IMG/VR virus record: IMGVR_UViG_3300024272_000023 | Length of the DNA stretch: 64,000 nucleotides | From: a virus | Lineage: Duplodnaviria > Caudoviricetes | Strand: one strand, 5' to 3' | Part shown: one piece after another, positions 5,997 to 44,870 of the stretch | How positions within the stretch are numbered: position 1 is the first letter of the stretch | Layout: each line of letters opens with the position of its first letter | Notes under the pieces: model-generated | Told to the model about the DNA's origin: nothing | Seen by the model: only the letters and a program-made list of their open reading frames with translations | Databases searched by the model: none | Made by a program: the position numbers and the translations under genes

Positions 5997-5997
5997 A

Positions 5998-6332: not shown

Positions 6333-6344
6333 TGAGGAGTAGAT

Positions 6345-6776: not shown

Positions 6777-6793
6777 TAAGGAGAAATATAAAA

Positions 6794-22897: not shown

Positions 22898-23725
22898 TTA
22901 ATATTCGCCGCACTTAATCACGGTACGATATTCCAAAGTCACTTCACAATTACCCTCAATAGCAATTTCATTCTTGCCATCGTATAATTCAAGCCACACC
23001 CAATTAAAATCATCTCCGAATATACGTCTAGTCAAAGAAGTCTTAATAATTTTATTTGCACCATCTATTGTAACTGTTTCATCAGAAGCATTGTTTGTCA
23101 ACTCAAGCGAATTGTATGACTTTGACGCATTAAAGAAGTCCGTGTGCTTGTTGATAAATTTAATGTTATTGCCATTTGTCTGAATTGTCACACGAGGATA
23201 AACTGGCTTGTTGTCGTCTGTATCTATGTTAATTGTAATCTTGTTGTCTGCCTCTGTTATTGTTTTGGTGGTCGTATAAAGGTCTGACATTGCGAATGGG
23301 GATATGCTATCCCAAGTCGCAGTTATTGCAACTGTACGATTATTCGCCAACTTCTGAAGCGACAATTCAACAAAACCGCCAATGCTAGCCCACGACACCA
23401 CATTACTATCATCGTAATACACCTCAAGGAGTGCCGTAGTATCCTTTTGTGTCAACCACTTGAGGGTTGCACGCACCTCCTCTTGGCTAAAATCACCGAA
23501 ATTTGACTTCGTAAAAGTAAATTTTGGCGAGAATGTTTCTGTATATTTCATATTGTGTATTCTTTTATATCGACCATCGTAAGACTCTGATGCCACAGCT
23601 TCTCTTGAAAGAAAGGTGTTTGCTTCCCCAGAATCGCTATCAAAGGCTACGCAGGTGATTAAATCTGGTATATTTAATTCATTGCTAAAGATACCTGAGT
23701 ATCTTATTCTATGAGGACTTACCAT
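22898..23725 (-). CDS. distal tail protein (Dit)
   Basis: Follows the tape measure; SPFA, VYPRVTI, WLELYDGKNEI pattern. Confidence 0.75.
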   Translation of the reverse strand: MVSPHRIRYSGIFSNELNIPDLITCVAFDSDSGEANTFLSREAVASESYDGRYKRIHNMKYTETFSPKFTFTKSNFGDFSQEEVRATLKWLTQKDTTALLEVYYDDSNVVSWASIGGFVELSLQKLANNRTVAITATWDSISPFAMSDLYTTTKTITEADNKITINIDTDDNKPVYPRVTIQTNGNNIKFINKHTDFFNASKSYNSLELTNNASDETVTIDGANKIIKTSLTRRIFGDDFNWVWLELYDGKNEIAIEGNCEVTLEYRTVIKCGEY

Positions 23726-23836: not shown

Positions 23837-26800
23837 TTATCTGCTAAAACGTTTAATTGAGTAATTAAGCTGTTTAGCAAATATATCAATTTTCTTATCC
23901 ATCATCGCTTCAAGCTGAGGCAATGTGTCTTTATCAACACGGTCAACCTTTAGGAAGTTTTCCATATCGATAACAATTTCTGGCTTATTAATTGCGTTAG
24001 CAATCATATTAATACCAGAATCAAACTTCGGTCTATTAATTAAGCCATCAACAACCTTTGGAAGATCAATTAATTCCCGTGTTAAGTCCGCTGGAATAAC
24101 GGTACTTCCGGCTCTCATAAATGAAAGTGTACCTTCAGGAGTTGCATACATGGTTAATTCATCTCCAAATTGTGGCTCGTCTGTTATAGCCCATTCATCG
24201 CGAGTTGTACCAGTAGTACCCTTAGCATGGAAATGAGCGGGAACCATTTGATAATATTTATTATACCAGTCAGCGTCAGCACTATAGCCATTCTTACGAG
24301 ACTGTATGGCACGATTTTTAATATTGCTTTCAAGTGCTCTGGCCGTATTATAATCGTATTTACCAGTCTGAGCAACCCCTATAGTTTTTTGTACTGATTT
24401 GAGAGCATTAGAGGTTTGAGTATCCCATATGCCGTTAACTGGAACCTGTTTATTGTAAACCTGTTCTAATATGGTTTGAAGCGTTCTGACGCTTGCGCTT
24501 GGAGTTGGTGTAGGATTTCCACCGCCTCCACCAGAGCCAGAACCCGATCCAGCATTTGGATTACCTCCAACATTTTGCACTCTCAACTGGGCCTGGTATG
24601 CATTGTCTGCGGCAGTTTTAACTCCATTCCACTTATCAATAATTTTTTGAATCTGATTAGCAAAACCGGTAATAGTACTCGAAAACTTATTACCAAGTTC
24701 CGTTCCAGTCAAGAAGTTCGAATACTTTTCAACAGCAACCTTGGCTGTATTCCAAGAACCAGAAAGTTTTGAACCAACTCCGTTTGCGAATACGGTAATA
24801 GCACCACCCTCGCCAATCAAAGCGGCATATTCACCGGAGGTCATACTTAGTTTCAATTCATCTTTCCACGCTATTGCCTGTGCAGATGCGTCTTTCCAAG
24901 GTTGAGTTAATTCATCAGATAATGTGATACCATATGTGTCCGCTATATCATTAAGTTCATTATAAACAATATCGGCATTGAACAGCACATCCATCATACT
25001 ATTCTGAATGAGCAATTCAACATTATCTAAAGTTTCTTCAAGTTTTTCGATGCGCTTTTCCTGAGATTTCCTGTATGCCTCAGATTCATCATCAAGTGCA
25101 GAAGACCGTGCGTCACGGCTGTGGTCATAATAAGTATCGTTTAGACCCTCTTTGGCTTCCATAAGTTGAGCCTCAAGACGTCTACGTTCCGCTACATCGC
25201 TCGCTGCAGAACTACCACTTAAACTTGCGATACGACGCTCAAGTTCACTAATGTCTTTTGTTTGCTTTTTAATATTTTTTCTAAAATCATACAGATCTCT
25301 TTCGGCATCTAATTCTTCTTTTTTTGCATCAATTAAATCTTCGTATGCCTCAATTTCTTTTTCAATTCCTTCTTTTATAGCGTCAATGCGAGCTTCGTTA
25401 AGTTCAATAATGCTATCTCGTGCGTCATTTTGCGCATTGATCGAATCGTATAAACCATCAGTCAATGTTGCAAGACGCTCTTGATATTGCTCTTCGCTTA
25501 ATTCACCATTCTTATATTGCTCTTCGACTTTTGCAATTTCAGATTGGTATCTCTGCGTGTCTGCGGCTGCCTTCTCAATAAGATTCGTATACATTGCCAT
25601 ACGAGTCAGTGCGGCAGAACTCCAGTTACCATTCTCATCTGCGACGTCTTCGTCTTCTAGTAGACTATCAACAAGCTCTAATTCTTTTCCCAAACGCGAA
25701 ATTTCATCTGTGGCTTGTTCAAAATAATGGATATCAATTTCGCGAAGCGCCTCTTGCCAAGCGATGGTGTTTGATTCACACTCTTTGATTGCCACAGCAA
25801 CCTCATTAAGAGTATTATTGTAATCGGTCCATGTGTCCTGGTCGATAGCGTCTTTATTTGCTTCAAGATAGTTGCTTAACGCAGTATACTGTTCTTCTAA
25901 TAAATCCTTTTCTTCCGTAGAAGTGCGAAGTAAATCTTCGTAATATTCTGCTGACGCTTTTCCACCACGAGCCTCAGCTTTGTCAATTTCGGCCTCAATA
26001 AGATTGCGCTCATTGGTGATGAGGGCAAGTCTATTTTCGTATTTTGCAACCAACCTGTCCCATTCAGATTCAGCTTCTTCTTGGCCAGAAGTTTTGCTAC
26101 CTGGATCAAGAATATTATTAAATGATGTTGGAAGATTATCTCTAACTGAATCAATTAATCCAACGGTATTTTGGAAATTAGTCAATACTTGTTGCCACTC
26201 TTCATCGCTAACAAACTCATTATCCTGCGCACCTTTTAATGCAGCATTAAATGCAGCTACCGACCCGGCAGCAACAATTGCATCACTAGCGACAGTACTA
26301 AGTGCGCCAGAATAAGTTCCAAGCTCAATCGACGCTTGATTTGCGGCTACGGCACTATTACTAACCTCTATGGCTTTCTTGCGCTCTGCTAACGCATTTA
26401 ACTGGGTTATCGCAGTCTGTACGGCGGTTGCTTCAGCGTCAGCGAGTTTAGTTTCAAGCATGGCTTGAAGTGCAGATTGATTAATGGTTAATTGACCGCC
26501 CTCCATTTTTAGAACCGCAAGATATTCGGGTTGCAGCTGAAGCAATGCTTGAAGATTATCTAAAGACAAATAACCCTGTGCATTATATTCGGTCGTAATG
26601 TCTTTCAAGGTAGAGTAAACACTTTGAACTTTATCCGCAACAGTGTCAAAGGATTCAAATTCCAAATCAACTTTTAATCCAAGTTTATCGCCAAGTTCAT
26701 CTAATGTACCTTGTGCCTCTTCGGACAATTCATCATAATTTTGCGGATCTTCAAAATATGTTTGAAGCGCGAGTAGCTGCTCGTCTGTAGATACCATACG

Positions 26801-29800
26801 CGCAATTTCAGATTTAATTTCTTCATCAGACATATGTCTGGCCATAAAGTGAGTTTCTTTATACTTGGCAATTTGCTCATCAGTGATTTCGACTGTCGGG
26901 GCGATAACTTCGTCATACAATTTTTCGATTTGCTTTTGAATAGCTTTTCGATTTGCCTCTGCGTTGTCCTCATTAGAGGCTATAGTTGCTGTGTTGGTTT
27001 TGTCTGCCTCGGTTCGTGTGCTAATCCACAAAAACTTTCCACTCTTTTTTTTTTCGGATTTTTTAACTGCTTTTTCTAATTCATCTTCGCTTGCTTTGGC
27101 TCTTTCATATTCTGATGTCAGTGTTTGTAAAGTTTGAATCTGCGTATTATAAGTATCTGCCTTTTTTTTAGCGCTCTTTGCATCGTAAGTCGCCGCAATT
27201 ACTTGTTTTTGTTCGGCGGTAAGTAAAACATTGTTTGCCTTTTCATACTCAGAAATTGCCTCTTCGATTGTTTTTCCGCCGTTTAAAACTTCATTCGCAA
27301 TTTGTTCACCTATGCTAGAATATTCCTTAATGCCATTAAGTAGCTCCGATGCATTATTAACGCCCATATTGGTAAGCTGAGACCATAGTGCCACATATTG
27401 CTCCGTTTCAATTTTTTCTCCAGATAAAGCCGAAGTAATTAAAGTTTCAATTAAGTCATTAATTGCCGCCTTAGCTTCTTCGGTGGATGCGGTACCGGAT
27501 GTCATAATGCTTACAAAATCAGTCCACTTATCGCCCATACCACCAAAGGTTTCACTAAGCTCTACAAGTGTTTGGGCGGTAACAATACCCGTTTCGTTGA
27601 ATTCCTCAAAAGCACCCTTTAAACTTTCTACCTTGTCTGCGAGTTTTGCAGCTGCTTTAATGGCATCTTCAGTAGTAAATTCTTGTGCTTCCTCTTCAGC
27701 CTTCTTTAAGTCTTGGAAATAATATTTGACATCTGTGACAGTAACACCCATTTTGTATAGATTCTGTTTGAAGTCTTCATCAAACGCACTAGAGAAATCA
27801 AATTCTTCTCCGGCTTTCATTGCTTCTTCGATATCTTTCTTGATATCCTTAAGCTCTTGTGATGCATTATCTCCAAAGAGGCGCGATATATAGTTGGTTT
27901 TATTAAAAGTACCTCGTGCTACGCTGTACTGATCCCGAAGTTCGGCTAAATAATCGAGCGCCTTATCAGATTCTGCGCTATCTCCGTATTCAACACCGTT
28001 CAGTGCTTCAGAAATAACAGCAATATATTCATCTATTTCGGCAGATTTTTCATCCAATTCCTTTTGATATTTTTCAATATCTTTTAAAGAAGATGCATTA
28101 TCTAACTTATTTTTAATCTCTCGATAATCAGCCATATCGTCAAGAACTTCTTCGTCCTCTGATTTTCCGTTGAGCCACGTACCAATTTCATCACGTTTGC
28201 TATCAACAACTTTTGCCGCTTGACGACCAACAATGCCAGCTTTATGTTTTTCCTCGTCTTCCAAGAGTTCTTTCCTATGCTCTAACTCAGCGTTTGTTGC
28301 TCGAAGTTTATCGAGTTCTTCCTGCTCTTCGAATGTAAGATTACCTTTTGCAAGAAGCTCTTCCATACGATCGTTGGTTTTTTCAAGTTCAGAATTAACA
28401 GAATCAAGCTCGGAACGAATGTCGGAAAGTTCTGATTTAAGACCATCAAGTTCTTCTTGGAGTTCTTCGGTCGATTTATGAATTGCAGCAAACGCTGCAC
28501 CTAATGCCACAACAGCGCCGACGGCAAGCAATATCCATCCGATTGGTGTGGTAGTCATAAATGTCCACATAGCTTTTGTGGCACCCCAAATTCCTGCCAT
28601 TAACCCCTTAAAACCAAGACCAAGAAGTTGTGTCATAGTCATATTGGCAATTTGAGCTTTCGTTAAAGCACCATTTGCAATTTGTTGCTTGACATATTCC
28701 GTTGATAACAACTTCATTATCAATAACTGTTTAAGCTTCGCACCAACATCCGCAAGGGTAGCGTCTTTACTCATTGCTGTTGCTAAAACATCTTTCCAAG
28801 TAGACGCCACCTTGCCGTCTGACGCCAACGCGGCTACTGCGTCAATTGTTGCGCTCTCTCCAGTAACAATATTGTCGGCCTTTTCTGCCGCTGTTTTCGC
28901 ATTAATTGCTGCGGTCATTCCATCCAGCTTGCCGGACGCCTCTCCAATCGTTTTGTCCATTTCGGCTAAATCAAACTGAGCGGCATAACGCACAGTGTCT
29001 ACTTTTTTCTTCTGCAATGAGTCTAAGTCTTTTTCTATATTGGCTATTTCCTGAGACGCATCTGTAATATGTTGGTCGCGCTCCTTGTTCATGCGGATAC
29101 CATCATTAAATTTACGGGTAACTGGCTCGGACTCTGCTTTTGCAAGCTTTTGTTTTGCTACCTCTAATTTCTTCTGCGTGTCTGTTATGTCGTCATCTAT
29201 GGAAGTCGTGTCAATCTCGACCAACTTTAGCATATCGTCACGGGAGTCTGATTCTACGGCTTTGGCCAACTCTTCACGTCTTGCCTTAATTGCATCTACT
29301 TCTTTTACGAATGCATCTCTATCGCCGATAAGCGCACCTAATTCTGGGTCAACGGGTGCTTTAGGTTCAGCGTCGTCAATTTGTTTACGCAAGATATCAA
29401 CGCGATCCTGCGCGTCTCTTCTTTCTTGAGCGGTACGCTTATTTCCATGTTGCACGTCCGCCTGAGTTGTCTTAGCAAGATCTTGCTCTGCCTTTGCTAA
29501 TTGTTGTTTAAGCGCTTCGACACCGTCTTCTGCTGGCTTAAAGAAATTGCTAAAAATGCCATGATTTTTCTCTAAGTATGTCAGAAATCCGACAAATGCG
29601 ATATTCACTGGGCCAATTGCGTCAACTATTTTTACAAGTTGCGTCGCAAGGTCAACAAAGAATTTGACAACATCGCTATCAAGTGTGTCACTCCACATTG
29701 CTTGCATAGCATTGTTGAATTGGTCAATTTTACCCTGAATGCTATCCAAATATTTTTCATTTTCTTTTAACGCACTACCCTCTGCGTTCATCGCATCTTT

Positions 29801-30301
29801 ATATGCTGCCTTAAGATCTTCTGGATTTTGAAGCAGAGCTGCAATAACCGAACTATTTCGTTTTCCGGCTAGAAGTTCCAATAATCCCGCTCTAGCTTTG
29901 TCATCAGTAATTTGGTCCCATACCTCTGCGATTTCCAATAATATCTGATATGTGCTTTTATAAGCACCAGTATCAGTTAAAATATCTACGCCAGAAATGG
30001 CCAATACTTGACTACGAAGTTTTGATGTAGATTCGACGGCGCCATCGGTGTCTAAGCCTTCTTCCTCTAAAACCTTCACTGAAGTTCCACGCAATCTTAA
30101 AGATGTTGTCTTCAATGCAGTTCCCACAGAATCCGCGTCCTGAATTATAGCATTGGCTGTCGCAGTCAAGGCTGCCGCCTCGGCAAGGTTACCGCCTGCA
30201 GCAACCAATGATGCAGAAGATTTAGTTAAAGATTGGGCCAAATCTGCTGTCGAGATTGCATAGTTGTTGCCTATAATATTGAGCGTGTTAACAACTTCCA
30301 T
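23837..30301 (-). CDS. tape measure protein, C-terminal part (frameshift-separated)
   Basis: Begins in the middle of the TP901-type TMP domain (VNTLNIIGNNYAIS..GTALKTTSLRLRG..AGKRN). Contains TM segments, long coiled coils, a peptidoglycan-binding module and HAKGT near the C-terminus. Confidence 0.85.
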   Translation of the reverse strand: MEVVNTLNIIGNNYAISTADLAQSLTKSSASLVAAGGNLAEAAALTATANAIIQDADSVGTALKTTSLRLRGTSVKVLEEEGLDTDGAVESTSKLRSQVLAISGVDILTDTGAYKSTYQILLEIAEVWDQITDDKARAGLLELLAGKRNSSVIAALLQNPEDLKAAYKDAMNAEGSALKENEKYLDSIQGKIDQFNNAMQAMWSDTLDSDVVKFFVDLATQLVKIVDAIGPVNIAFVGFLTYLEKNHGIFSNFFKPAEDGVEALKQQLAKAEQDLAKTTQADVQHGNKRTAQERRDAQDRVDILRKQIDDAEPKAPVDPELGALIGDRDAFVKEVDAIKARREELAKAVESDSRDDMLKLVEIDTTSIDDDITDTQKKLEVAKQKLAKAESEPVTRKFNDGIRMNKERDQHITDASQEIANIEKDLDSLQKKKVDTVRYAAQFDLAEMDKTIGEASGKLDGMTAAINAKTAAEKADNIVTGESATIDAVAALASDGKVASTWKDVLATAMSKDATLADVGAKLKQLLIMKLLSTEYVKQQIANGALTKAQIANMTMTQLLGLGFKGLMAGIWGATKAMWTFMTTTPIGWILLAVGAVVALGAAFAAIHKSTEELQEELDGLKSELSDIRSELDSVNSELEKTNDRMEELLAKGNLTFEEQEELDKLRATNAELEHRKELLEDEEKHKAGIVGRQAAKVVDSKRDEIGTWLNGKSEDEEVLDDMADYREIKNKLDNASSLKDIEKYQKELDEKSAEIDEYIAVISEALNGVEYGDSAESDKALDYLAELRDQYSVARGTFNKTNYISRLFGDNASQELKDIKKDIEEAMKAGEEFDFSSAFDEDFKQNLYKMGVTVTDVKYYFQDLKKAEEEAQEFTTEDAIKAAAKLADKVESLKGAFEEFNETGIVTAQTLVELSETFGGMGDKWTDFVSIMTSGTASTEEAKAAINDLIETLITSALSGEKIETEQYVALWSQLTNMGVNNASELLNGIKEYSSIGEQIANEVLNGGKTIEEAISEYEKANNVLLTAEQKQVIAATYDAKSAKKKADTYNTQIQTLQTLTSEYERAKASEDELEKAVKKSEKKKSGKFLWISTRTEADKTNTATIASNEDNAEANRKAIQKQIEKLYDEVIAPTVEITDEQIAKYKETHFMARHMSDEEIKSEIARMVSTDEQLLALQTYFEDPQNYDELSEEAQGTLDELGDKLGLKVDLEFESFDTVADKVQSVYSTLKDITTEYNAQGYLSLDNLQALLQLQPEYLAVLKMEGGQLTINQSALQAMLETKLADAEATAVQTAITQLNALAERKKAIEVSNSAVAANQASIELGTYSGALSTVASDAIVAAGSVAAFNAALKGAQDNEFVSDEEWQQVLTNFQNTVGLIDSVRDNLPTSFNNILDPGSKTSGQEEAESEWDRLVAKYENRLALITNERNLIEAEIDKAEARGGKASAEYYEDLLRTSTEEKDLLEEQYTALSNYLEANKDAIDQDTWTDYNNTLNEVAVAIKECESNTIAWQEALREIDIHYFEQATDEISRLGKELELVDSLLEDEDVADENGNWSSAALTRMAMYTNLIEKAAADTQRYQSEIAKVEEQYKNGELSEEQYQERLATLTDGLYDSINAQNDARDSIIELNEARIDAIKEGIEKEIEAYEDLIDAKKEELDAERDLYDFRKNIKKQTKDISELERRIASLSGSSAASDVAERRRLEAQLMEAKEGLNDTYYDHSRDARSSALDDESEAYRKSQEKRIEKLEETLDNVELLIQNSMMDVLFNADIVYNELNDIADTYGITLSDELTQPWKDASAQAIAWKDELKLSMTSGEYAALIGEGGAITVFANGVGSKLSGSWNTAKVAVEKYSNFLTGTELGNKFSSTITGFANQIQKIIDKWNGVKTAADNAYQAQLRVQNVGGNPNAGSGSGSGGGGGNPTPTPSASVRTLQTILEQVYNKQVPVNGIWDTQTSNALKSVQKTIGVAQTGKYDYNTARALESNIKNRAIQSRKNGYSADADWYNKYYQMVPAHFHAKGTTGTTRDEWAITDEPQFGDELTMYATPEGTLSFMRAGSTVIPADLTRELIDLPKVVDGLINRPKFDSGINMIANAINKPEIVIDMENFLKVDRVDKDTLPQLEAMMDKKIDIFAKQLNYSIKRFSR

Positions 30302-33300
30302 TGATGTGTCCGCAGTATATCCAAAAGCTTGTACTGCTGAATCAACGAATCGGTTGCTTGAGAAACATCTGTAAATTCACTAACATTCATCAATATTTGA
30401 GTGCTTTCAGCAAATTTAACAGCATCTTCCATAGAATGGCCTAGACGGGCCCAGTCCGCTGTAGAACTCACAACCTTCTGAACCGTACTGCCAACCTTGT
30501 CTGCAGTCTTCGCCGCAGTCTCTAGGAACCTATCATAAGTTTCTTCTGTTTCGTTCGTTACCTTCTTAAGTTCTGTTAATGCAAGGTCGATATCTCTTAC
30601 ATATTGAACACCCTTCTTCAACTCATTAAACGCCTTAAAGATAATACTTGAGCCACTAAAGTACGTAAAGATTTCTTTTGTCTTACGAGTAATCGTTTCG
30701 ATAATCGTCTCCGTCTTCTTGATACCAGTACGCAGCATACTTAATCTGCCTGTAAGTGGATCTACCGTCGCACTCCAAGTTGCAAAAGTATTTGCTGCAA
30801 TCTTGGTCGTGCCAGTTAACTCGCCCGTCTCATCCTTGAGCCCTTTAATAGTCGTCTTACCAGACGAAGCATTTTTAATCGCCGCAGTGATATTATTCCA
30901 ATATTCCCTGGTACCAACAGCGCCAAAATTACTTGCGTCACCAAGGTCAGTTACATTGTCTCCGCTATACTTTTCATGAATCTTCAGATAACCATCAACC
31001 TCGGTCTTAAGTTCTTTAACTTTCGATATCTGTTTGCTTAGATTATCTCTATCCTCAGCAGACGCTTGGTCGCCCTTCTTGTCAATCTCATCGCGTAACA
31101 TACGCAACATCTTGATCCGTTCAGACAGCTCTTTAGCTTTGCTTTCAATATCCTTAAAAATACCCTCGGTACCAATAGCACGCACAACCGTCTGGTCACC
31201 AGCATTAGCTGCGGATGTCGCTGCATTAATACCAGTCGCTCTTTGGGCATCTTTGACTTGCTTCTTCCATGCGGTCTCAGCATCCTTATCGTCTTTCTTT
31301 TTCTGTTTATTTATCTCTTTTTGCGCCTTTTCGGCATCCAACAATCTTTTCTCGGCATCAAATGCTACGCTATACTTTTCTCTTAGACTAGCACTTTCGT
31401 CCATTGTCAACTTCAAGGACTTTCTTTTTCTAGATATCTCTTCTTTGAGATTTTCAAGCATAGCCTTTGTTTCAAGATTAGCATCACTTGCAAACTTAGC
31501 CGATAATTTACCAAGAGTTTTATAATCATTGATAAGCGATTTCATCATGTTGGAGCGGGCAGCCTGTGCTTTAGCTTCGGATTCTACGGGTTGCGCATTC
31601 GCCTGCTTAATAGCTCCTCGTGTAGCAATAACACCTCCCTTGGCGATCTTGCCGTCAATAGACTCCAAAACAGACTTAATTTCTGCCAATCTACCATCAA
31701 GAGCTGTACCGGCTATTGCATCAACGTTCGAAGGTGCAATGGCTCCAATCTTGCTGGTATTAGTATGAATATTATCAAGCACACCCTTGACTGTTTGCAG
31801 CGTATTTTCAAGTGCCCAAGGCGCCTGCTTCGGTTCTGAATCATTTTGTTGTGTTTGAGGATTAAGAATATTTGCAAAAACCTTAGTTAGTGTTGATTCA
31901 AGAGTAGAATCTTCTAATGCAATCTTATTTGCTGCCTTATCACTATCATCATGTGCAATCTTCACATTATACACAATCGAATTAAGAAGTGTTTTAAGTT
32001 CCTCTGAAGCTACAGACGCATGTTCTTCGCTTCCGCCAGTTTTAGCATTAGCCAATTGACCACGAAGATCAACCATCTCTTCCTGCATGCTTGTCATTGC
32101 ACGGTCATACATGTACGCCCTATCTTCTGCTTCCTTAGTTCTCTGATTTGCCTCTACTAGTTCTGCTTCGACGGCTTCTGTTACATGTCTTTCAGCAGCG
32201 GCCTCATCTTGTGCAACCCGCTCTGCTAGCTCAGCTTCTTCGCGCTTTCTATTTGCCTCAATAACTTCCGCATCCTTTGCTTCGAGTTGTTGACGCATGT
32301 TTTCAAGTTCCGCAGAAGATGCGTCTCCGGTACCGCCGCCAGGCGTCAATTGCTGTGTTTTTTCTAGGCTCTCATTGAGACCATTAACGGATTGTTCGGC
32401 AGCAATAATCTTTTCACCAAAACTTTGCCATTGTTTTCCTGGAATATCTAAAAGGTTTGGTGCAACTTCTTCTATCTTCTCGCCTACACTAATTAACTCA
32501 TCATATTCAGAATCATTAAGACTGTCCCTATTTTTAGTTAATACTGCATAGTTTTTTATCAACTCTTTAAGCTCTTCATTCGCACGAGCAAATTCATCAT
32601 CAAGAGATTCGGTTTTTATATCTTTATTCCTTGGTTGTGGCTCGTTATAAATATTTGCAATAGGCAATTCTGGCATTTTAATTGATTGCATAACCCCGGG
32701 AATACTTTGCAAGACTTCCTCTAAATCCTGTCTCAACATAACTTGGACGGCCTCTTGTCTTCCCTGGAGCGAACCAAACTTGTCTATTTGCTCATCATAA
32801 CTCATTGCTTTAACTTGTGCGCTCAACTTTTCATCTAAATCTCTGTATTTTTCGATGACTTCCAAAAGTTGAGATGGGTCTAACTTAGAAAAATCGAAAG
32901 CGAGTAATTCTTCACCGGCTCTAATGCCAAATTTCTTTATGTATGATAATTGCTTAAACCACGTTTCGAAATCGGTGACAGAAGGAGCCGCCGTCTTCCA
33001 AGAATGCGAATGTACCTCCATGTCGTATCCAAGCTCAGACATCTTTCTTGATGTTCCTGGGTCCATAGTAACGCCATGGGGGTCTCCAACAAAGAGTTCA
33101 CTCATATTGCCAGTTTGAGTATTAACAAAAGCTAAAGATTCATTTTTTTTGTCTGTTTTTTCAAATTCGCCCTGGAATTTATCCATCGCCTGCATCAATC
33201 CGAGCTCTTCTTTGCGAGCGTTGGCAGCTTTCTCTTGAGCTTTGGCTAATTTTTCTTCTTCAATGCGTTGTCTTTTCAGACTTTCTTCTTGTTCTTTTTC

Positions 33301-34836
33301 TGCCAATATCCTCTTTTCCGCTTCTTCTCGCGCTTCTTTTTCCGCTCTCGCTTTTGCCTCCGCCTCTTCTCTAAGTTTTTGAGCATTAGCAACATCCTCT
33401 GGTGTTAGAGCCCCGGTACCGTCCCCTCCAGCTCCACCCAGTCCAACAGGCGGTTTTCCTTCACCCATATTAAGAATGCTTTGTAGCATATTTTGAGCAT
33501 TATCAGCCATAGGCTTCAGTTGTTCATATAACGGCGTAAAAGGATTATTCTTTTTAGTTATCTTGTTTGAATGAGTTTTGTTTGCTGTTGTCAAGTAAGA
33601 TTCATATAGTCTAACATACTTAAGCAACGCCCGATATTCTTCTACCCAATTTCCGGATTCTGCCGCTTTCTGATATTGATCATAAAGAGCCTTAATTCCT
33701 TCGCTTGATTTAGAAGGATCAAATTCAAGAGCAGACGCGATGTGCTTTACCTGTCTATCATCAATTCTTTTTTCTCCATCAACACGAAGTTTGTTATACA
33801 CCTCTTCAATTTCATTTAATGTTTTTAAGCCGTTGTTTTCATTTTTTACAACGGTCTCAACGGCGCCTCCTGCAGTTTGTATCGATTTAGTAATTTCAGA
33901 TATTTGAGCATCAATCTCTGACATTCGATTCTCAACGGCGCTTAATTCCTTTTGGCTTTTGTTAATCGTGCCTGCAAATCTCTCCCATCTGTCTCCTATG
34001 AATTCGCCCGCATTAGTTTCATAAAACGGAACGAGAGGATTTTTACCAGCTTTATACGCCTTCTCTTCATATGCCATCCTATCTTCGGTAACATGGAAAC
34101 CATCACTGTCGTCGTACTCTAATAAGCCATATGCCGCCCGTATACTTTCTGGCACCTTTACTTCTGTTTTTTGTAATGACTTACGCATTCTATACAAATC
34201 ATGATATATTTCCTGTGCCTCATATAGAGCTTTTATATACTCCTGAGAATCTTGGCCCTGTTCTTTTCCTATGTCGCTTAATTGTTTTGCAGTATTGCGA
34301 AGACTGGAATACATTTCTTTTGCTTTTTGTATAATATCTCCATCAACATTCAAAGACTTAACGGTCTTGTCATCAAAATCAATTAAGCTATCAGCCTTGC
34401 CCTTATTTGTAACCTTTTTATTAATTTCGGCCTGTATTCTGGTACGCTCTCGTTTTAAATCAGCTTGTTCTAACCGCAGTTGTTTTAAGGACTCCTCAAG
34501 CCCGGCCGTTGAAGCACCACTTATTCCGCCAGAAACAGAATTCCATGCGTCCCAGAACGACGTCGCCGCAATCTTACCCATTTCTGCAAACATAGCAGGA
34601 GGCGGCATCTCGATTAGATCTGCAAAATTAATGCTCTTATTGCCCGCCTTGGTAAAAATCATCTCAAACGCCTTAGCAAGATTCTTCAAACTTGCAATAT
34701 TCTCTTTTGAATTTAAATCAATCTTAGACGCATTATCAAATATGTCGCTAAGCTCGGTTATAAGTTCTGATTTAGATTTCTTTTCAAGTCCAACGGCCAC
34801 GTCTAATATATGTTTAGCAACTACATTATTATCCAT
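30271..34836 (-). CDS. tape measure protein, N-terminal part (contains JAB/JAMM motif)
   Basis: Ends in the first half of the TMP domain (IDLALTELKKVT..TADWARLG..ATDSLI). The frame changes at about 30340. Confidence 0.85.
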   Translation of the reverse strand: MDNNVVAKHILDVAVGLEKKSKSELITELSDIFDNASKIDLNSKENIASLKNLAKAFEMIFTKAGNKSINFADLIEMPPPAMFAEMGKIAATSFWDAWNSVSGGISGASTAGLEESLKQLRLEQADLKRERTRIQAEINKKVTNKGKADSLIDFDDKTVKSLNVDGDIIQKAKEMYSSLRNTAKQLSDIGKEQGQDSQEYIKALYEAQEIYHDLYRMRKSLQKTEVKVPESIRAAYGLLEYDDSDGFHVTEDRMAYEEKAYKAGKNPLVPFYETNAGEFIGDRWERFAGTINKSQKELSAVENRMSEIDAQISEITKSIQTAGGAVETVVKNENNGLKTLNEIEEVYNKLRVDGEKRIDDRQVKHIASALEFDPSKSSEGIKALYDQYQKAAESGNWVEEYRALLKYVRLYESYLTTANKTHSNKITKKNNPFTPLYEQLKPMADNAQNMLQSILNMGEGKPPVGLGGAGGDGTGALTPEDVANAQKLREEAEAKARAEKEAREEAEKRILAEKEQEESLKRQRIEEEKLAKAQEKAANARKEELGLMQAMDKFQGEFEKTDKKNESLAFVNTQTGNMSELFVGDPHGVTMDPGTSRKMSELGYDMEVHSHSWKTAAPSVTDFETWFKQLSYIKKFGIRAGEELLAFDFSKLDPSQLLEVIEKYRDLDEKLSAQVKAMSYDEQIDKFGSLQGRQEAVQVMLRQDLEEVLQSIPGVMQSIKMPELPIANIYNEPQPRNKDIKTESLDDEFARANEELKELIKNYAVLTKNRDSLNDSEYDELISVGEKIEEVAPNLLDIPGKQWQSFGEKIIAAEQSVNGLNESLEKTQQLTPGGGTGDASSAELENMRQQLEAKDAEVIEANRKREEAELAERVAQDEAAAERHVTEAVEAELVEANQRTKEAEDRAYMYDRAMTSMQEEMVDLRGQLANAKTGGSEEHASVASEELKTLLNSIVYNVKIAHDDSDKAANKIALEDSTLESTLTKVFANILNPQTQQNDSEPKQAPWALENTLQTVKGVLDNIHTNTSKIGAIAPSNVDAIAGTALDGRLAEIKSVLESIDGKIAKGGVIATRGAIKQANAQPVESEAKAQAARSNMMKSLINDYKTLGKLSAKFASDANLETKAMLENLKEEISRKRKSLKLTMDESASLREKYSVAFDAEKRLLDAEKAQKEINKQKKKDDKDAETAWKKQVKDAQRATGINAATSAANAGDQTVVRAIGTEGIFKDIESKAKELSERIKMLRMLRDEIDKKGDQASAEDRDNLSKQISKVKELKTEVDGYLKIHEKYSGDNVTDLGDASNFGAVGTREYWNNITAAIKNASSGKTTIKGLKDETGELTGTTKIAANTFATWSATVDPLTGRLSMLRTGIKKTETIIETITRKTKEIFTYFSGSSIIFKAFNELKKGVQYVRDIDLALTELKKVTNETEETYDRFLETAAKTADKVGSTVQKVVSSTADWARLGHSMEDAVKFAESTQILMNVSEFTDVSQATDSLIQQYKLLDILRTHQWKLLTRSIL
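31839..31854 (-). repeat. 16-bp motif, copy 5
   Basis: ACACAACAAAATGATT inside the tape measure gene. Confidence 0.85.
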
Positions 34837-34848: not shown

Positions 34849-35373
34849 TTAATTCATTCTCTTAATTTGCTTTGCAAAAGAAGTTATAATGTTTTTATGA
34901 AATGTTGTATTTGCATAATTATTTAAGTATGTTGTCATATGTTCGGTTGGCGAAATAGCGTCAACGTTTTCATAATAGAACGCCTCGCCCGGCTTCGAGT
35001 TACCATCTGTAGCAGGATGAACACCGCGAAGATAATTATCTAAAATCCACGAACTATCGGTCGGACGGTACCTTTTTGACCCATAATACGTACCCTCTAT
35101 CCGTGCCGCATCATATTCTACACCAACACTACTTGTTATTTTATCTTTATCTTGTTGAATCGTCAGATATGGCACGATTGCTCGCCACAAACTGTCGGTA
35201 CGTTCGTAGCTCGTGGGGTCATACGAGTCATAATAACGCTCAAGGCAACTCATAGATTCTTTATATATATCTTTTACCGCCTCATTAGAAGCATATTCTA
35301 CTGCCTCTTTCAAGGCGCTCTCGTAATTCTTCATCAATTCGTCTATGGCAGACTCCAATGTTCTCTTTGCCAT
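34849..35373 (-). CDS. putative tail completion/neck protein
   Basis: YYDSYDPTSYERT motif; lies directly before the tape measure. Confidence 0.55.
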   Translation of the reverse strand: MAKRTLESAIDELMKNYESALKEAVEYASNEAVKDIYKESMSCLERYYDSYDPTSYERTDSLWRAIVPYLTIQQDKDKITSSVGVEYDAARIEGTYYGSKRYRPTDSSWILDNYLRGVHPATDGNSKPGEAFYYENVDAISPTEHMTTYLNNYANTTFHKNIITSFAKQIKRMN

Positions 35374-35390
35374 ATCTAACTCCTCCGTAA

Positions 35391-35963
35391 TTATTTAATT
35401 TTATCTAAAAGACCAATCAGATTGGTCAAATCTTCTCCCTTAATATCGGCGCCAAGAATGTTCTTCAAGTCAAAATTCTCAAACTTATCCTGGATCACCT
35501 CGAGCACTCCATCAAGCACGTCGGAAATCTTATTCAAGAAGCGGCCAACAAGTGCATTTGTACAATTATCCTCCAGCTCCATTTCGAGTACCATCTTGCG
35601 CAGAAGATCAATCTCGTCGTGCGAACCCTGGAACTGCGCTATAATCTGCGGAAGCAATCCGCTTTCAGCAAGCAGGTCATAATCTGAAATAGGATTTGTC
35701 GAGAACTTCAAATTGGTATGAGCCATAATAGAAGCCGCAATAAGTGCAATATAACCAGAAATGGAATCATACTTCTTAATACCATCAACCTCGGCTATAT
35801 TCTGCGCCGCCACCATCTCTGCGATTTCACGCTTAGTGCTGAACGGTACATACTCCTTAACCTCCAACTCCTTTTTGAGCCATTCAATTCTCTCCTTATC
35901 GCCCTGCTTAGTGTTCATAAATTTCTTTGCTTTGTAATTCTCGCAAAATTCTTTAATAGTCAT
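35391..35963 (-). CDS. putative tail assembly chaperone
   Basis: VKEYVPF..K, YDLL.ESGL; helical protein two genes before the tape measure. Confidence 0.55.
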   Translation of the reverse strand: MTIKEFCENYKAKKFMNTKQGDKERIEWLKKELEVKEYVPFSTKREIAEMVAAQNIAEVDGIKKYDSISGYIALIAASIMAHTNLKFSTNPISDYDLLAESGLLPQIIAQFQGSHDEIDLLRKMVLEMELEDNCTNALVGRFLNKISDVLDGVLEVIQDKFENFDLKNILGADIKGEDLTNLIGLLDKIK

Positions 35964-36036: not shown

Positions 36037-39000
36037 TTAATCATTTTGCATTGTTTCTAATTTATTTTCAAGTTCTTCTACTCGTTTCTTGAGTTTCTGA
36101 ATCTCATTAACACATAAAGCTATGAATTCACCATATCGAAGTCCATAACCCTTTGAACCATCATTTTTATCATACTCTATATATCCAGCAAAATCAGATG
36201 TTGATATGTTTGTTTTTTGTAATGCATCTCTAACATCTTGCGAAATAAATCCTATATGATATCTATTACTATCGTTAACATTAAACTTATATCGCACAGG
36301 CTGTAGTTCGTCAAAGAATGTTCCATATTGATCTGGAATGGCCTCTATTGAGTTCTTTTCATTTCTATCAGACAACGAATTAAGATCAGATTGTACACAC
36401 CAAATCTCTTTCCATCTACTATCCTGAGTTCCTAATGTATACGTAGTCTCACCGTTCTTACCAGAAACAAAGTTACCATTACAAGTTATTTTATTTACGA
36501 CTGAAGCACTAGGCTGGATAAAGTCACCAACATAATAACTCACGCTATCAAATGTTTCCACCTTATATCCTCTTTGTATCAAATGTGGAACAGTAAATGA
36601 TTTACTACTTGCTCCAGGTTCAAAGGTTACATAATGTGATATATTTATATTATTAGTATACCACACAGTTACTCGAAATGTCCGACTTTGCAAAGGGGTT
36701 CTCTTGTGTAATATACCAGTACTAGGATCCTTAAAATAAAGACTTACACCAATCTGAACTTGACCTTCGTCCCGTACTTCCTCTGGAGTTATTATCGTCA
36801 GCCCTAACTGAATTGGAATGCCATAGTCAAAAGTTCCTTCTTTTATAATCGTGCTTCCTGCATGAACCTCCACTTTTTCAGATGGTGTTTCTGAATCATC
36901 TAAATCTAAAGATGTCATTTCGTTCATACCTGATATTATGCTTGTTTTTACTTTGGGCGACCCCAACTCTTCTGTCGCACTTACTTTCTTTGTCATTACT
37001 TCTCTTGAATTGGAATCCAAAGTTAATCCACCGTCTTTGGAAGTTATTAAGCCTTTATATATTGATAACGCTCCAAAATGTCCTTCTGTGGCATTAACCG
37101 TTCCATTAATACTTGCTGCGTTCGCATACAAGCTACCATCTTCAAGGACTAAAAAATTCGGGAGTATTGGACCTGTAGGTTTCTTGAAAGCAGAACCCGC
37201 AAAAATACGAGCATTAGAAGTTGTATTGGGATTAACTATAGAAGAAAAAATGCTAGTTAGTACATATCCCCACGTTACAGGACGTTCGCTGTTGTTCCAA
37301 GTGGAATCCCAACTAGACGGCTGAGGCGTTGCCTCACAATATATCATACAAATAGATAAGTCATCAGTGGTCATTCCGCATGAAAATGCATTGGCCCCCA
37401 TAGTGCTGACACTATCAGGTATATACACTGTTTCTAGGCCGGAGCAATTCCAGAACGCCTCTTTGCCGATGCTTGTTACGCTGTCGGGGATCACTACACT
37501 TGTAATGTTTGCTTGATAAGCAAACGCCTTATCACCAATACTTGTGACACTATATTCTCCTATTTTAAATGGAATATTAACTTGACTAAGATGAAGTTTT
37601 AATTTCGTTATCTCACATGTCTTATCATCATCATTTTTTTCAATCTCAAAGATATCTTCATATGATAATGATGACAATGATGATGAACAAAGTCCCACAT
37701 GACCCATTAGTTCCGTACCTGAATATAACATATCCTCTTCAATATGCCATCCGCCAATAGTGCCGCCAGTGGCATCAACATCCCTAGCAACCACATTTCC
37801 ATTTGTATCTACGATAAATTTGTCAGCGACATTAATAGCCTTGCTGTATGTACCACTATCAATATTATCAGCCGAAAGGGTTAAACTGGTTGCATCGATT
37901 TTACCGCCATTAATAACAGTTTGACCGTCCTTGTTTGTTGTTAGCCCATTTATTGTATCGCTCCAGGATTTAAATGTAGTAGTGCCATCCACACTAATCT
38001 TATCTCCCCGAATCGTCACACCTTCACTGGAAGCATTAATACAAGTAATAACATTATCTCTTCCTACCATATCCTCGGGAGCAGGTGTCCAGTCTGTAAC
38101 ACTGTTGCCCCTTTCAATTTTTATATCCGTAACATATATCGGATATTTTGCATAATAGCCTTCGGCATCCGCTTCGTAGGTAAATACACGAAACCGCGCA
38201 TTTGTCATATCTGTGTGTTGCGAAGAAACAGTCCAATGGTACCTTTCAGGAACAGAAGTTACTTCCAAGAATTTTTGTGGTAATGTATCTGGCCATAAAT
38301 CCCAGGTCAATTTTTGTCTTGCCGTTGTGTCTGTGGTTTCAAGCCAAGCCGTGAATGAAACGGTATATTCTGTGTCAGTTTCCAAATCCAAATCCTCGGA
38401 GTGACAAAAAATATCATAATTAGTAGTCCCACCAGCACAAACAAATCCAAAACCGGACTTGCTATTTTTGTCAATAGCTATTGGCGCGGTATTCTTGCCG
38501 TCAACAGTCAAAGAATAGTCGGATTTTGCAATTAGATTTCGTCCGCCGGCACTAACAACGTCTTCTGGGGCCGGTGTCCAGCTAGTCGCTTTATTTCCCT
38601 TTTCTAATTTTAACTCGGAAAACTGGATTGTGCCTTTGTAATAATTATCATAATAAAGTTGAAAACTTAGATAATATCCAACGGCATTTTCTTCGACAGC
38701 GAACGTTTCCGCAAAATAAACCCAGTCTGTGGTATCGGCTGTCGCAATAGGTGTATTGATGCCACCAGTCCAATAGTGAGAAAACTCCGAATCAGTTGCA
38801 TTCGCCTGTGATCTTACGTTCAACGATATGAGCGAACCGCCGGAAGTTGCGGTAGTTGCGGAAGTTGTAACCTTCACTTTGCCGCTGAAGGTGTATGTGC
38901 TACCAGCTTCAAGCGTGTACAGCGCAATCGCGCCGGGGTTCATAAAGCGGTAATAAATCTCGTTTATAGAAGTATTTGCATTTAGCGTTAAAACGCCGTT

Positions 39001-42000
39001 CTCAACAGAATAGCTATCCAAACCAATTACTCTTGCGCTACTTCCAACAAGAGTTATATCTTTGTTTCCTCCTGTGTTAAGAAGCAAATTCCTACCACCA
39101 ATTTCAATATTATCAATAGCACTGTCTATCGAGCCCTGTATTGAAACCGAAAATGTCTCATTAACTAATAAATTATTGACATCTATTTGGTCTGCAGTAA
39201 TAGTGCGGGTCGCAATATTCGCGCCATGAATGGTGGTACTCCCTAAAGTGCTCAAATCGGTCATCGTAACGTATCCATTAAGATTAATATGGTCCGCCTC
39301 AATTACAACCGATGAACCTGCATCATTAACCGCAGTAACAATTGACGCCGCAGTTACCTTACCATCTTCTCCGACACTTTCAACGACCTGTGCAATACTT
39401 GCGCCAGCATTATCTGCAGTCTGCTTAATATTTGCTAGATTATATTGACTACCGCCAGGATCTGTTTTCCAGGATGTTATACTTTGAACTTCCGATGCGG
39501 TATCTGATAACCACGCACCAAATCCGGCAACACTACCGTATGCGTCAACAACCTCGGCAACAATACTATTTGTATCCTGTCTAACCTGACTCACAGCTCT
39601 GCTCTGAGAATTACCTGCCAGTGTGGCAACAACGACCCAATGATACTGCGTAGCATTGCTTTCATCAACATACGATTCCCACTTATAAAGAGTATAAGCT
39701 TCATAGGGAGAAGTGACGTTGGCACCGTTAGTATACCAATAACCAAAATTACCGCTAACAGTTGGCTCTGTTGTGGTAAAATATACAGCCTTAGATGAAG
39801 TATTAACTTCACTTGTCTCCGTGTAATTTTTATCAATGGTAATCCATCGATATTGATCGCTAACTTTGCCCCACTTATATAAATACTGCGGAGTAAAGCT
39901 CCTTGTGTATTTTTGAACTGCTTTATCGACATCTGTATATTCATATTCTTCTGTGACACTTACGGTTGGCACATAAATCATACCCTCTTCAAGCACACTC
40001 GCCGCTTGCTCTAAAGTAAAACCATAAGCCTGAGAATGTGGTCCAACGCTATATTTATCCATATTTGATACAGTACTCTGAATATAAGCACCGTTAGCAT
40101 CTGCCTTTTGTTCGATACGGGCCATAGAGGTATTGGTATCACCTTGCCAAGAAGTCAAACTGTTAATGCTTGAACTGGTCGCATCAGTAACAACTTGAAT
40201 ACCAGCAATTGAAGCCGGCAAACCTGCGGTGTAAGCATCAGCGGTTTCCTTCCAACCTGCTTCATAATATCTATATACCTTATCCACAACAATATAATAA
40301 ACATGGTTTGTGTCCACTTTACTATTGTTTTGTAAAGCGGCCCACGAAGATGTCCTTGTCCATGAATTACCACCCACACAATAAGCATATTTTCTAGTCC
40401 CGTCCTCTTTAAAAGCATAAATCTTAGAGGTATCTCTGTTCTTATCAACCCATTCGGGCATAACGACATATTTGCCAGCAACACGGTTAGAAACAAGAGA
40501 AACATTTGATTCATTCTCCTTAATGTATGTATTAAGTCCGGCAAGTCCAGTAACTGTTGTACCATCGTTTTTGGTAAATTCATGATTAACAATTGCACTT
40601 AATTCTGATGTATTATCATTAACATCTGCTACCAAGCCAGCAATTCCGCTGTTGCCGCTATCACTATTGCTATATTGCGCCAAAGTATTAATGCTAGCGG
40701 AATTTGCATTTGCCGTTGCTGTTATACCTGCGAGAGCAGTATTGGTTTCATTTTTCCACGAAGTTATTTGTTCAATACTCGCCTTATTAGTATCCGCCGT
40801 TGCTTTAACTCCGGCAATTGTCGTGTTTAATTCCGTATCTTTTTGTGTCAATTGTTCAATACAAGCCTCATTTGCACTAGCAGTTTGTTTAATAGAAGCA
40901 ATGCTCGAAATATCGCTTTCTACCTCTGATTTCCATGAAGCTAAAGAACTAATACTAGATTCATTGACATTTGCCTTTTGTATAACGGCTGCGATAGATG
41001 TGTTAGCTGTGCCCTGCCACGCAGTAATTGATTCGATACTAGTTTTGTTAGCATCAGCCTGTTGCTTGATTGAGGTAATGCTCGACACTTCATCTCCTAC
41101 ATCAGATTTCCAGCTCGTTAGAGTTTCCACAGAGGCTGTATTCTCATCCACCTGTGCCTGCAACCCCGCAAGATTGTCATCAAAGCCCGCTAAAGCCGAA
41201 ATAGAACTCTTATTTTCATCAACCTGTGCTACCAAACCAGCAAATCCAGTTTTGCCGTCTTTTTCATACGAAGCAACTGCAGAAAGAGCAGCCTCGTTGG
41301 CATTAGTCGTCGCCTCTATTTCAGTAATAGATGTCGTCGTCTCGTCTTTCCACGCTGTCAGAAGAGTAATATTGGCTTCGTTTGCATCTGCTTTTTGTTC
41401 GACCGAAGCAATACTTTCTGCCATATCCTCGGGGGCTGGAGTCCAATCCATTACCTGATTTCCTCTTTCAAGTTTTATGTTCCATAAGTCATAAGTTATT
41501 ACCATGTCAACACCACGGTTGGGCTGTATATAAATATTTTCATCGCTTAAAACTTCTGGATTCACCACGAAGGTTAAAATAATATAATGCTCCTTAAACG
41601 GTTTATCTGTGCTTCCGTCCTCATCTAACGGGATTCCATTCCCATAGGCTGAAAGCGATGGCATTTGAACTCCATCCAAAATGATTTTTGAAAATATAAA
41701 ATCAGCACTGTGACCTCCGATATTTTTTAATGTACCACTAGTGCCCTGAAAGAAATAACTAAGGGTATAAGTTTCTTTGCTTTTTAATATCTCCTGGCTT
41801 ATTCGTGTGCCATGGTATCCTGCATTTTTGGTAATATTCCAACCTTTTTTGGAACCATTATTTATAGTATTATTAACGGTTACGCCAGAGTGAGTAATGA
41901 ACTTATCACAAGCAAGGTTTTTACCTCCGATAGAAAAATTGTTTTGCCACGTAGTTACATTCTTAATACTGGCCTTATTTTCATCTACCGCCTGAGTTAT

Positions 42001-44321: not shown

Positions 44322-44870
44322 TTATGATATTTTATTGCAGAAGTCTAAAAACATCTGCTCAATTTCCTCTGTTGTGATGCCATATTCCGAAAGACCTTTA
44401 GGGACTTTCTTCATAGGTTTACGGCAAATTGCCTTGATGTGTTCAAGGTTAGTGTTAATGCCTATATGGATAGTTGAATACTGAATATGACCATAAGGTG
44501 TTGCACTTAGACCACTAATTTTGTATCCGTCAATGAGAACATCATTATCTTCATAGGTTGCTTTCAGACCTCTCTTCTTATATTGTTCGATAAGGTAATC
44601 AGCAAATCTGTGCATCCACTTATCACCAATAGCACCGAAGTGAACAACACTCACATCACCTTCACTCACTACTACAACGCCACCTGTGTGTTGAGTATTG
44701 AGTACAGTGTAGCCTTCGTTATCACATACCTCTCTGTCAATAGAGTCGGGGTCGGTCATAAAAATGGATTTTTCATCGTGAACACAATAGGCAATGCCGT
44801 GTTCTTGATTTGTGATGAAATGTTGAATTGTTGATATAGCTTCATTACTCTTTACTTTTTTAATGTTCAT
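44322..44870 (-). CDS. lipoate-protein ligase (BPL/LplA/LipB) fold protein
   Basis: HTGGVVVVSEGD, NDVLIDGYKISG (conserved Lys), IHIGINTN. Confidence 0.7.
   Translation of the reverse strand: MNIKKVKSNEAISTIQHFITNQEHGIAYCVHDEKSIFMTDPDSIDREVCDNEGYTVLNTQHTGGVVVVSEGDVSVVHFGAIGDKWMHRFADYLIEQYKKRGLKATYEDNDVLIDGYKISGLSATPYGHIQYSTIHIGINTNLEHIKAICRKPMKKVPKGLSEYGITTEEIEQMFLDFCNKIS

Follow-up and report, generated by a model that had tools for sequence, protein, structure and literature searches.

What is the active site of a metallopeptidase doing inside the tape measure protein (TMP) of a phage? The question is raised by a 64,000-nucleotide (nt) stretch of DNA from a tailed phage (Caudoviricetes; IMG/VR record IMGVR_UViG_3300024272_000023), the whole of which is called the window here. 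A preliminary description, made from the sequence alone, reported an intact JAMM motif of the JAB/MPN+ type in the long N-terminal extension of the TMP, and suggested that the virion might deliver it as an effector. The analysis presented here points to a divergent JAB domain that can be exchanged for other modules between related phages. In the model that we favor, with moderate confidence, the swappable JAB domain is enzyme cargo carried in the virion on a polyvalent TMP and delivered at ejection.

The minus-strand open reading frame (ORF) 34836..30271 encodes a protein of 1521 amino acids (aa), P0001, that contains KKNESLAFVNTQTG ... YDMEVHSHSWKTAAPSVTDFETWF (proteins are given as P numbers and the loci of relatives as L numbers). 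Residues 555-660 read KKNESLAFVNTQTGNMSELFVGDPHGVTMDPGTSRKMSELGYDMEVHSHSWKTAAPSVTDFETWF, within which HSHSWKTAAPSVTD corresponds to aa 609-622, with Glu566 upstream. Residues E566, H609, H611, S619, and D622 match the signature exactly, as E-x42-H-x-H-x7-S-x2-D, and E/K/A-rich, coiled-coil-like sequence flanks the region on either side; on both points the preliminary description was right. Its word "intact" holds for the catalytic residues, which are complete, but not for the carrier gene, which is frameshifted in this assembly. Across the six reading frames of the window, HxHx7SxxD is found a single time, compared with chance expectations from composition of ~0.27 in six frames and ~0.02 in long ORFs. 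Taken alone, the motif is suggestive; conservation and fold provide the decisive evidence. The relevant features are as follows.

30271..34836, minus strand: TMP part 1 (P0001, 1521 aa), with a tape measure match to phrog_4211
32884..33219, minus strand: predicted JAB/MPN+ core, P0001 aa 540-651, from AlphaFold2, Foldseek, VIA-align, and a sub-threshold match to PF14464
32971..33141, minus strand: span of the catalytic motif, E566-D622, from the motif and its conservation in 45 relatives
33139-33141, minus strand: catalytic residue E566, by codon position
33010-33012, minus strand: catalytic residue H609, by codon position
33004-33006, minus strand: catalytic residue H611, by codon position
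32980-32982, minus strand: catalytic residue S619, by codon position
32971-32973, minus strand: catalytic residue D622, by codon position

A divergent JAB/MPN+ domain

An exhaustive HMMER search over 1.84 billion representative proteins identified the JAB domain in 27 clusters (50% identity clustering). These relatives, supplemented with closer ones from word-indexed searches, form a set of 45 distinct proteins. Nearly all JAB-bearing relatives are 1400-3960 aa long, and the domain is located at residues ~350-800. In an alignment derived from a hidden Markov model, the Glu, both His, and the Asp are invariant (45/45), and the Ser is present in 43, with Thr in the other two; A616, P618, and G584 are likewise invariant. 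This conservation is found at a mean pairwise identity of 37% and a minimum of 15%. Several distant members have the classical JAB form H(T/N)HP...(A/V)PS..D, and in about half of the relatives the spacing between Ser and Asp is six residues, not two.

The AlphaFold2 model of the JAB domain, built with the alignment of relatives, has a mean predicted local distance difference test (pLDDT) score of 93.4 and a predicted template modeling (pTM) score of 0.85. The predicted core consists of helix a1, beta strands, the HxH strand, the S..D helix, and two closing strands. Specifically, HxH ends a beta strand and the Ser and Asp begin the next helix, which is the JAMM arrangement. The top 33 rows listed by Foldseek against the PDB are exclusively JAB/MPN proteins (probability 0.77-1.00, E from 3e-3), and include Rpn11, AF2198, PfJAMM1, RadC, BubCD, AMSH-type proteins, BRCC36, CSN5, and Cap3. 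VIA-align, run against 48,161 representative chains, returned only MPN proteins in rows 1-26. The best match was PfJAMM1 (5ld9; Z 9.4, root-mean-square deviation 3.0, 106 residues), and others were RadC (2qlc, Z 9.0), Cap3 (9ild, Z 8.9), DSY2949 (Z 8.3), AfJAMM (Z 8.1), a bacterial deubiquitinase of ubiquitin-like proteins (Ubl) (8tyy, Z 7.6), and BubCD (9ea5, Z 7.6). The earlier expectations that the region folds as MPN and that the motif residues are conserved were thus borne out.

Matches at the level of family models are sparser. Prok-JAB (PF14464) matches 4 of 10 diverse members, with a best E of 6.7e-5, and P0015 as well. Neither the single domain nor a 10-member profile gave more than noise (E > 0.4) in searches of PDB sequences. 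The JAB clade is divergent, and its membership in the superfamily comes from fold and motif, not from the score of a curated model. Among predicted structures of viral proteins, the JAB model resembles some that are annotated as MPN, RadC, "tail component," and, in several cases, MuF-type "minor capsid proteins." Atlas comparisons pointed to viral Prok-JAB clusters, Phage_min_cap2, and the polymorphic-toxin family Toxin-JAB1, as leads only.

Because the Glu, both His, and the Asp are invariant and the predicted fold is that of MPN, we conclude that this is a real, divergent JAB/MPN+ domain, and that its active site is under purifying selection. The domain is probably active as a zinc peptidase. 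Alternatively, it could be an inert MPN scaffold, or the motif could be a chance string within a structural TMP spacer; a scaffold role is common among MPN domains (MPN-minus), and TMPs tolerate insertions. Such an explanation is extremely unlikely given that five catalytic positions are kept across the 45 proteins down to 15% identity, that the motif is scarcely expected by chance in long ORFs (~0.02), and that the fold is predicted with high confidence.

The near-top match to RadC raises another possibility, that the domain is not a peptidase and acts on nucleic acid or nucleotides, for example on the DNA end by the head-proximal end of the TMP. According to Iyer et al. (2017; PMC5512222), the groove for a ubiquitin tail is missing from RadC-type JAB domains, which may process nucleic acids. 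However, Prok-JAB was matched, whereas the RadC Pfam model (PF04002) was not, at E up to 1 or over the wider range up to 1-10, and the HNHPSG signature of RadC is absent, the window having HSHSWK in its place. To our knowledge, nuclease activity of RadC has not been established. We regard a RadC-like role as very unlikely.

The carrier is a tape measure protein

P0001 begins with a conserved N-terminal domain, which is followed by the JAB cassette, coiled-coil spacers, and the first half of PhageMin_Tail. The remainder of the TMP lies in a second ORF.

23837..30376, minus strand: TMP part 2, 2154 aa from the first ATG at 30301 (open from 30376), with matches to PF10145, phrog_4211, and PF01471
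29459..30714, minus strand: PhageMin_Tail (PF10145)/phrog_4211 core, interrupted by a frameshift, from profile matches
30334..30345, minus strand: 1-nt frameshift inside PhageMin_Tail, where the window has TTGATTCAGCAG and relatives have ...(T/S)LIS(A/S)VQAFGY...

P0001 aa 1375-1498 match positions 575-696 of the phrog_4211 profile (E 1.2e-16), and part 2 matches positions 711-985 (E 1e-51), such that the profile positions are contiguous across the two parts. Part 2 also includes PF10145 (aa 2-145, E 2.5e-9) and, near its C-terminus, PG_binding_1 (PF01471; aa 1936-1990). At the frameshift the window translation reads ...DSLI|QQYK..., and one T of ATT-TCA is apparently missing. P0015, P0003, and P0004 read through this site in one frame, and P0015 is a single ORF of 3696 aa that is collinear with both parts. 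By this comparison, the full TMP of the window is ~3670 aa, encoded by two overlapping ORFs that are joined by reading through the 1-nt shift. Either the assembly is in error here, or the frameshift is real and inactivates or truncates the gene.

The JAB domain precedes the TMP core, in an N-terminal extension of ~1300 aa. This placement, made in the preliminary description, is upheld by the PF10145/phrog_4211 core, the gene for the distal tail protein (Dit) downstream, and the conserved gene order. The TMP identity that it proposed also holds, but its single gene does not, as the window has two ORFs and not one open frame.

The TMP genes of relatives are interrupted at several different sites within PhageMin_Tail (L001:14430-14655; L011:11188-11913; L012:12729-13337; L013:13525-14637; L003:6709-6990). 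A 279-nt gap in the L001 gene has a full-length match to the group I intron model RF00028 (29.1 bits, E 1.6e-5, below gathering), and insertions in other relatives encode LAGLIDADG or GIY-YIG homing endonucleases. The L011 insertion has no Rfam match even at E up to 1. No intron or homing-endonuclease insertion was identified in the window copy of the TMP gene. Because these insertions interrupt PhageMin_Tail, most TMP "proteins" in databases are N-terminal pieces of 1400-2200 aa.

An exchangeable cassette in the TMP extension

The JAB core and the sequence that accompanies it form a cassette that covers P0001 aa ~540-810. Two further features are needed here.

32401..32883, minus strand: rest of the cassette, aa 652 to ~812, from the alignment of relatives, AlphaFold2 helices, and BLASTP boundaries
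33433..33453, minus strand: motif P-(P/L)-V-G-(L/M)-G-G, aa 462-468, conserved, at the end of the N-terminal domain

The core is accompanied by a conserved helical extension (FDFSxL ... LRxxLExIMxxxPGVM; helices 115-160 of the AlphaFold2 model) and then by a spacer, and this helical tail is ~90-160 aa long. Among 34 proteins that resemble P0001 aa 1-470, 19 have no match to the JAB profile. In these, BLASTP homology to P0001 mostly ends at aa ~510-545 and resumes at aa ~780-830 (781-833) in 11 of the 19 and further downstream in the rest; the JAB slot is occupied by unrelated inserts of 210-1070 aa. Of the proteins counted as lacking JAB, two (P0044 and P0048) can be aligned across the JAB region, at ~40% identity, and P0048 has an HxH...PSxxD-like string. 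They may hold diverged JAB copies, so 2 of the 19 are uncertain.

The flanks of the slot in P0040 are 81% and 75% identical to P0001, as close as those of the JAB-bearing P0003 and P0006, yet the slot holds a different insert of 565 aa. The swap is therefore recent. The P0040 insert recurs in 21 other TMP fragments, and relatives have further inserts after the positions equivalent to aa ~725 and ~1000. Overall, the TMPs of relatives are mosaic in domain content, a trait of polyvalent proteins. A stand-alone JAB homologue of 159 aa, P0036 (L005:4380-4859; HTHPFNVAVPSIDD), is encoded outside the tail genes, in a non-structural block with a SprT-like protein, a methyltransferase, two tyrosine recombinases, and AAA_24. 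From these comparisons, the JAB core with its helical tail is a mobile cassette in a variable slot of the TMP extension. The question whether relatives swap other effector domains at this position, which had been set as a check, is answered in the affirmative by the unrelated cassettes in the same slot, by ART-PolyVal in relatives, and by the JAB copy among non-structural genes.

The evidence for ADP-ribosyltransferase cargo is firmer than that for kinase-like cargo. P0015 has, in addition to JAB, an ART-PolyVal domain (PF18760, E 1.1e-4, aa 1111-1296) upstream of PhageMin_Tail. A homologous segment was identified without JAB in P0050 (aa 1210-1386, E 4.9e-6), and the two segments are 31% identical (E 2e-29). 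The same segment is present in P0022 (aa 968-1229, with JAB) and in P0083 (PF18760). ART-PolyVal is inserted after the equivalent of aa ~1000 of the window protein; the window TMP itself has no ART-PolyVal cassette. For the P0040 cassette (aa 560-840; L013:9678-10520), the AlphaFold2 model is poor (pLDDT 61.7). Three weak, concordant signs make it a candidate kinase-like domain, as a lead only. Each of the first 50 Foldseek rows is a protein kinase (RNase L being counted for its kinase homology; E 0.14-0.45, TM ~0.2), the atlas features give a kinase score of 0.77, and the sequence has the patterns GxxxxGG...ALILKK (a glycine-rich loop and Lys) and NLGNILYD...IVDMD. No MPTase processing domain was found among the Pfam matches of P0001, P0015, P0018, and P0040-P0056, although divergent versions could escape this search.

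The exchange pattern also bears on the possibility that the JAB domain serves the TMP itself. It could cut the giant TMP precursor, in cis or between subunits, for example at PLVGMGG, and, either as the tail is assembled or once ejection has taken place, would in this way trim the N-terminal extension or set it free. The strongly conserved P-L-V-G-M-G-G closes the N-terminal domain, is followed by a Gly-rich linker, and is kept even in relatives that are 25-40% identical around it; it may serve as a hinge or as a signal, at Gly-Gly, for cleavage or loading. Cleavage by JAMM enzymes occurs after Gly-Gly tails, and processing of TMPs is known from other phages. Autoproteolytic release of modules, by metallopeptidase domains, has been proposed for polyvalent proteins (Iyer et al. 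2017; PMC5512222). However, the motif, ~90 aa upstream of JAB, is conserved irrespective of the presence of JAB. Both the GG motif and the extension are kept in the JAB-less P0040, P0041, P0045, P0047, P0049, and P0054-56, and many JAB-bearing relatives (P0016-P0039) have no such motif. In addition, P0050 has ART yet no JAB, and one JAB copy stands alone outside any TMP. Because JAB-less relatives keep the motif and extension and many JAB-bearing ones lack the motif, JAB is not generally needed for maturation. We consider self-processing unlikely, if still worth entertaining.

As a narrower candidate, PLVGMGG with its Gly-rich linker was considered as a cis substrate specific to JAB. It was rejected, as JAB-less proteins keep it and many JAB-bearing ones lack it.

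Proposed delivery with the virion and possible targets

We propose that the ~1300-aa extension acts as a "polyvalent" cargo carrier that would be assembled into the tail along with the TMP. It would exit the virion with the TMP at DNA ejection, and its enzymes would become exposed in or at the host cell. There, the JAB domain could act on a host or phage protein by Zn-dependent hydrolysis of a peptide or isopeptide bond. The proposal builds on the identity of the domain, its conservation, the exchange of cassettes, the co-occurrence with ART, and the TMP context, all of which were observed. We infer the presence of JAB in the virion, its delivery, its catalytic activity, and its substrate from these. 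The concept of polyvalent proteins that are injected is established (Iyer et al. 2017; PMC5512222), and the TMP extension is likened to them because one virion-associated polypeptide would carry interchangeable conflict enzymes.

Several points weigh against delivery of JAB as virion-carried cargo. The Prok-JAB model scores only 15.5 bits on the window protein (E 0.016), compared with a gathering score of 25. Within the extension of the window, JAB is the only enzyme domain recognized (besides the C-terminal PG_binding_1 of the TMP), and for this reason the term "polyvalent" rests on relatives. In those relatives, the ART-PolyVal matches are below gathering (27.8 and 23.4 versus 31.2 bits), and the kinase-like reading of P0040 derives from a model with pLDDT 62 and weak matches. 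If the frameshift is real, the product would be a 1521-aa protein without the distal part of the tape measure. Delivery would also require the extension to be kept in the mature tail and to enter the cell, and a folded domain of ~18 kDa per TMP copy would have to fit, or unfold, in the narrow lumen of the tail tube.

A more specific version makes the TMP extension a modular injection platform for lineage-specific enzymes, with JAB as a pre-made counter-defence isopeptidase. The TMP would leave the tail ahead of the DNA, and JAB would strip ubiquitin-like conjugates from the first second of infection. Its targets would be the priming step of type II CBASS (anti-phage signaling based on cyclic oligonucleotides) and the tagging of tail proteins by Bil/Bub. 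We hold this version to be quite improbable.

An injected deconjugase that removes Ubl conjugates of type II CBASS (Cap2/Cap3) or Bil/Bub, the version preferred in the preliminary description, is a special case of the delivery model and, in our estimation, a rather doubtful one. Cap3 (9ild, Z 8.9), 8tyy (Z 7.6), and BubCD (9ea5, Z 7.6) are among the best structural matches. Moreover, no E1, E2, or Ubl (ThiF, UBC, ubiquitin-like) was detected by Pfam in the 39 window ORFs, in agreement with the earlier remark that a ubiquitin-like gene is absent. Because no phage Ubl, E1, or E2 was detected, any ubiquitin-like substrate would need another source. However, the Cap3 and Bub matches tie with those to PfJAMM1 and RadC and so indicate a shared fold only. 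A literature search found no description of a phage JAB as counter-defence.

When ORFs ending in GG were sought as possible Ubl genes, the only one was a 105-aa ORF (59914-60231, minus strand; ...TLKGGDSNV) that has no family match. This ORF is located in the head-tail gene block, and its Gly-Gly lies four residues before the stop.

Novelty and significance

A tblastn search with the JAB domain against 50,697 GenBank phage records gave no match. With the whole 1521-aa ORF, only aa ~1390-1505 (PhageMin_Tail) matched, in four records: two uncultured "Bacteriophage sp." from human feces and Brevibacillus phage Sundance under two accessions. A back-translated pattern scan of IMG/VR with the JAB domain produced 72 pattern matches, none of which was confirmed. 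Among the papers listed by literature searches on TMPs with JAB, JAMM, or MPN, none describes a JAB in a TMP. Each element is known by itself, be it JAB domains, enzymes on TMPs, or polyvalent cargo proteins; what is new is their combination as a TMP slot system for JAB, ART, and other cassettes.

TMPs are usually regarded as rulers that carry, at most, a cell-wall hydrolase. Here, ~1300 extra TMP residues serve as a slot system throughout a clade of large uncultured phages, and the swappable JAB, ART-PolyVal, and perhaps kinase resemble the enzymes of injected effectors. If these are delivered, the TMP would be a second route for ready-made effectors, beside polyvalent proteins packaged in the head. 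The JAB domain would, in that case, be the first virion-borne phage JAMM enzyme with a testable role, against host protein conjugation or in self-maturation. Proteins with near-identical flanks and different cargo are natural "swap" controls, which would help in phage engineering and in finding new counter-defence enzymes.

Gene neighborhood and likely host

The genes on either side of the TMP gene are those below.

22898..23725, minus strand: Dit gene, directly downstream of the TMP gene, with DUF6558, DUF6558_C, and SPP1_Dit
34849..35963, minus strand: two genes of ~180 aa immediately upstream of the TMP gene, occupying the tail assembly chaperone position

The two ~180-aa genes have no family match and, from their position only, are putative tail assembly chaperones. 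The order (two ~180-aa genes, TMP, Dit) is the same in every related locus fetched (L001, L007, and L009-L013). Further genes of the window encode NrdD, a serine integrase, TubZ, and large fiber proteins, and related contigs measure 137-166 kb. An anaerobic Gram-positive host is suggested by the endolysin types of a relative (CHAP, Amidase_2, LysM, and CW_7) together with the anaerobic NrdD. The clade consists of ~140-165 kb uncultured phages, probably of gut Firmicutes. At gathering score, Rfam identified nothing on the window, L001, or L003, and no tRNA genes were found.

A block for nucleotide metabolism (315-7468, plus strand) encodes an HD-domain protein, a Thy1-like fragment, guanylate kinase, an NT5C nucleotidase, anaerobic NrdD with its radical-SAM activase, a dUTPase, and a vWA protein. 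It is followed by a SleB-type cell wall hydrolase (7530-8069). A 2606-aa fiber-like protein (36037-43857, minus strand) combines BspA-type leucine-rich repeats with a C-terminal S74 chaperone domain, and the fiber gene cluster includes a 182-aa protein with an LplA/LipB-like catalytic domain (44322-44870, minus strand).

Comparison with known systems

The closest structural counterparts of the phage JAB are the minimal archaeal and prokaryotic JAMM proteins (PfJAMM1 of Pyrococcus furiosus, 5ld9; Archaeoglobus AF2198, 1oi0/1r5x) and PF14464. The fold is the same (Z 9.4 and 8.1 over ~106 and 86 aligned residues), E...HxH-x7-S-x2-D occupies the same secondary-structure positions, and the size is similarly minimal, ~110 aa, the large insertions found in Rpn11 or CSN5 being absent. 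However, identity is only 13-17%, many phage relatives have a Ser-Asp spacing of 6 rather than 2, and the phage JAB has its own conserved helical C-terminal extension. It also lies inside a tail protein of ~3670 aa and is not free-standing beside Ubl/E1 genes. Cap3 and the Bil/Bub proteins (9ild, 8tyy, and 9ea4/9ea5) have the JAB fold too (Z 7.6-8.9), and the phage JAB may likewise act in phage-host conflict. Their genes belong to the host and stand in operons together with E1/E2 and Ubl or CD-NTase genes, whereas the phage JAB has none of these nearby and is part of a structural protein.

RadC in polyvalent proteins has the same JAB fold (2qlc, Z 9.0) and is likewise a module in large proteins of invasive DNA elements, but the phage JAB has no RadC Pfam match. 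Iyer et al. (2017; PMC5512222) reported RadC only in polyvalent proteins that conjugative elements encode, not in those of phages, and did not mention tape measure proteins. The phage polyvalent and MuF/portal-fused effectors in that study have the same exchangeable enzymes, including ART-PolyVal, a late-gene context, and mosaic architecture. Their carriers are head proteins (MuF, portal-linked, and DarB-like), whereas the carrier here is the TMP, with no MPTase detected.

Lambda gpK, which combines MPN with NlpC/P60, is also a JAB/MPN protein of siphophage tail morphogenesis. It is a small tail-tip protein that is associated with the ubiquitin-like gpI. The phage JAB described here is, in contrast, an insert that can be swapped and that lies far away from the tip-proximal TMP C-terminus, with no Ubl gene seen and no NlpC/P60 partner. 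Finally, the enzymes known from TMPs are peptidoglycan hydrolases, with M23 or Rpf-like motifs, that act on the cell wall and are usually located in the core or C-terminal part. The window TMP, which also has a C-terminal PG_binding_1 domain, would likewise bring an enzyme to the infected cell. Unlike those enzymes, the JAB, ART, and other cassettes occur in an extra N-terminal extension and resemble effectors of the intracellular type.

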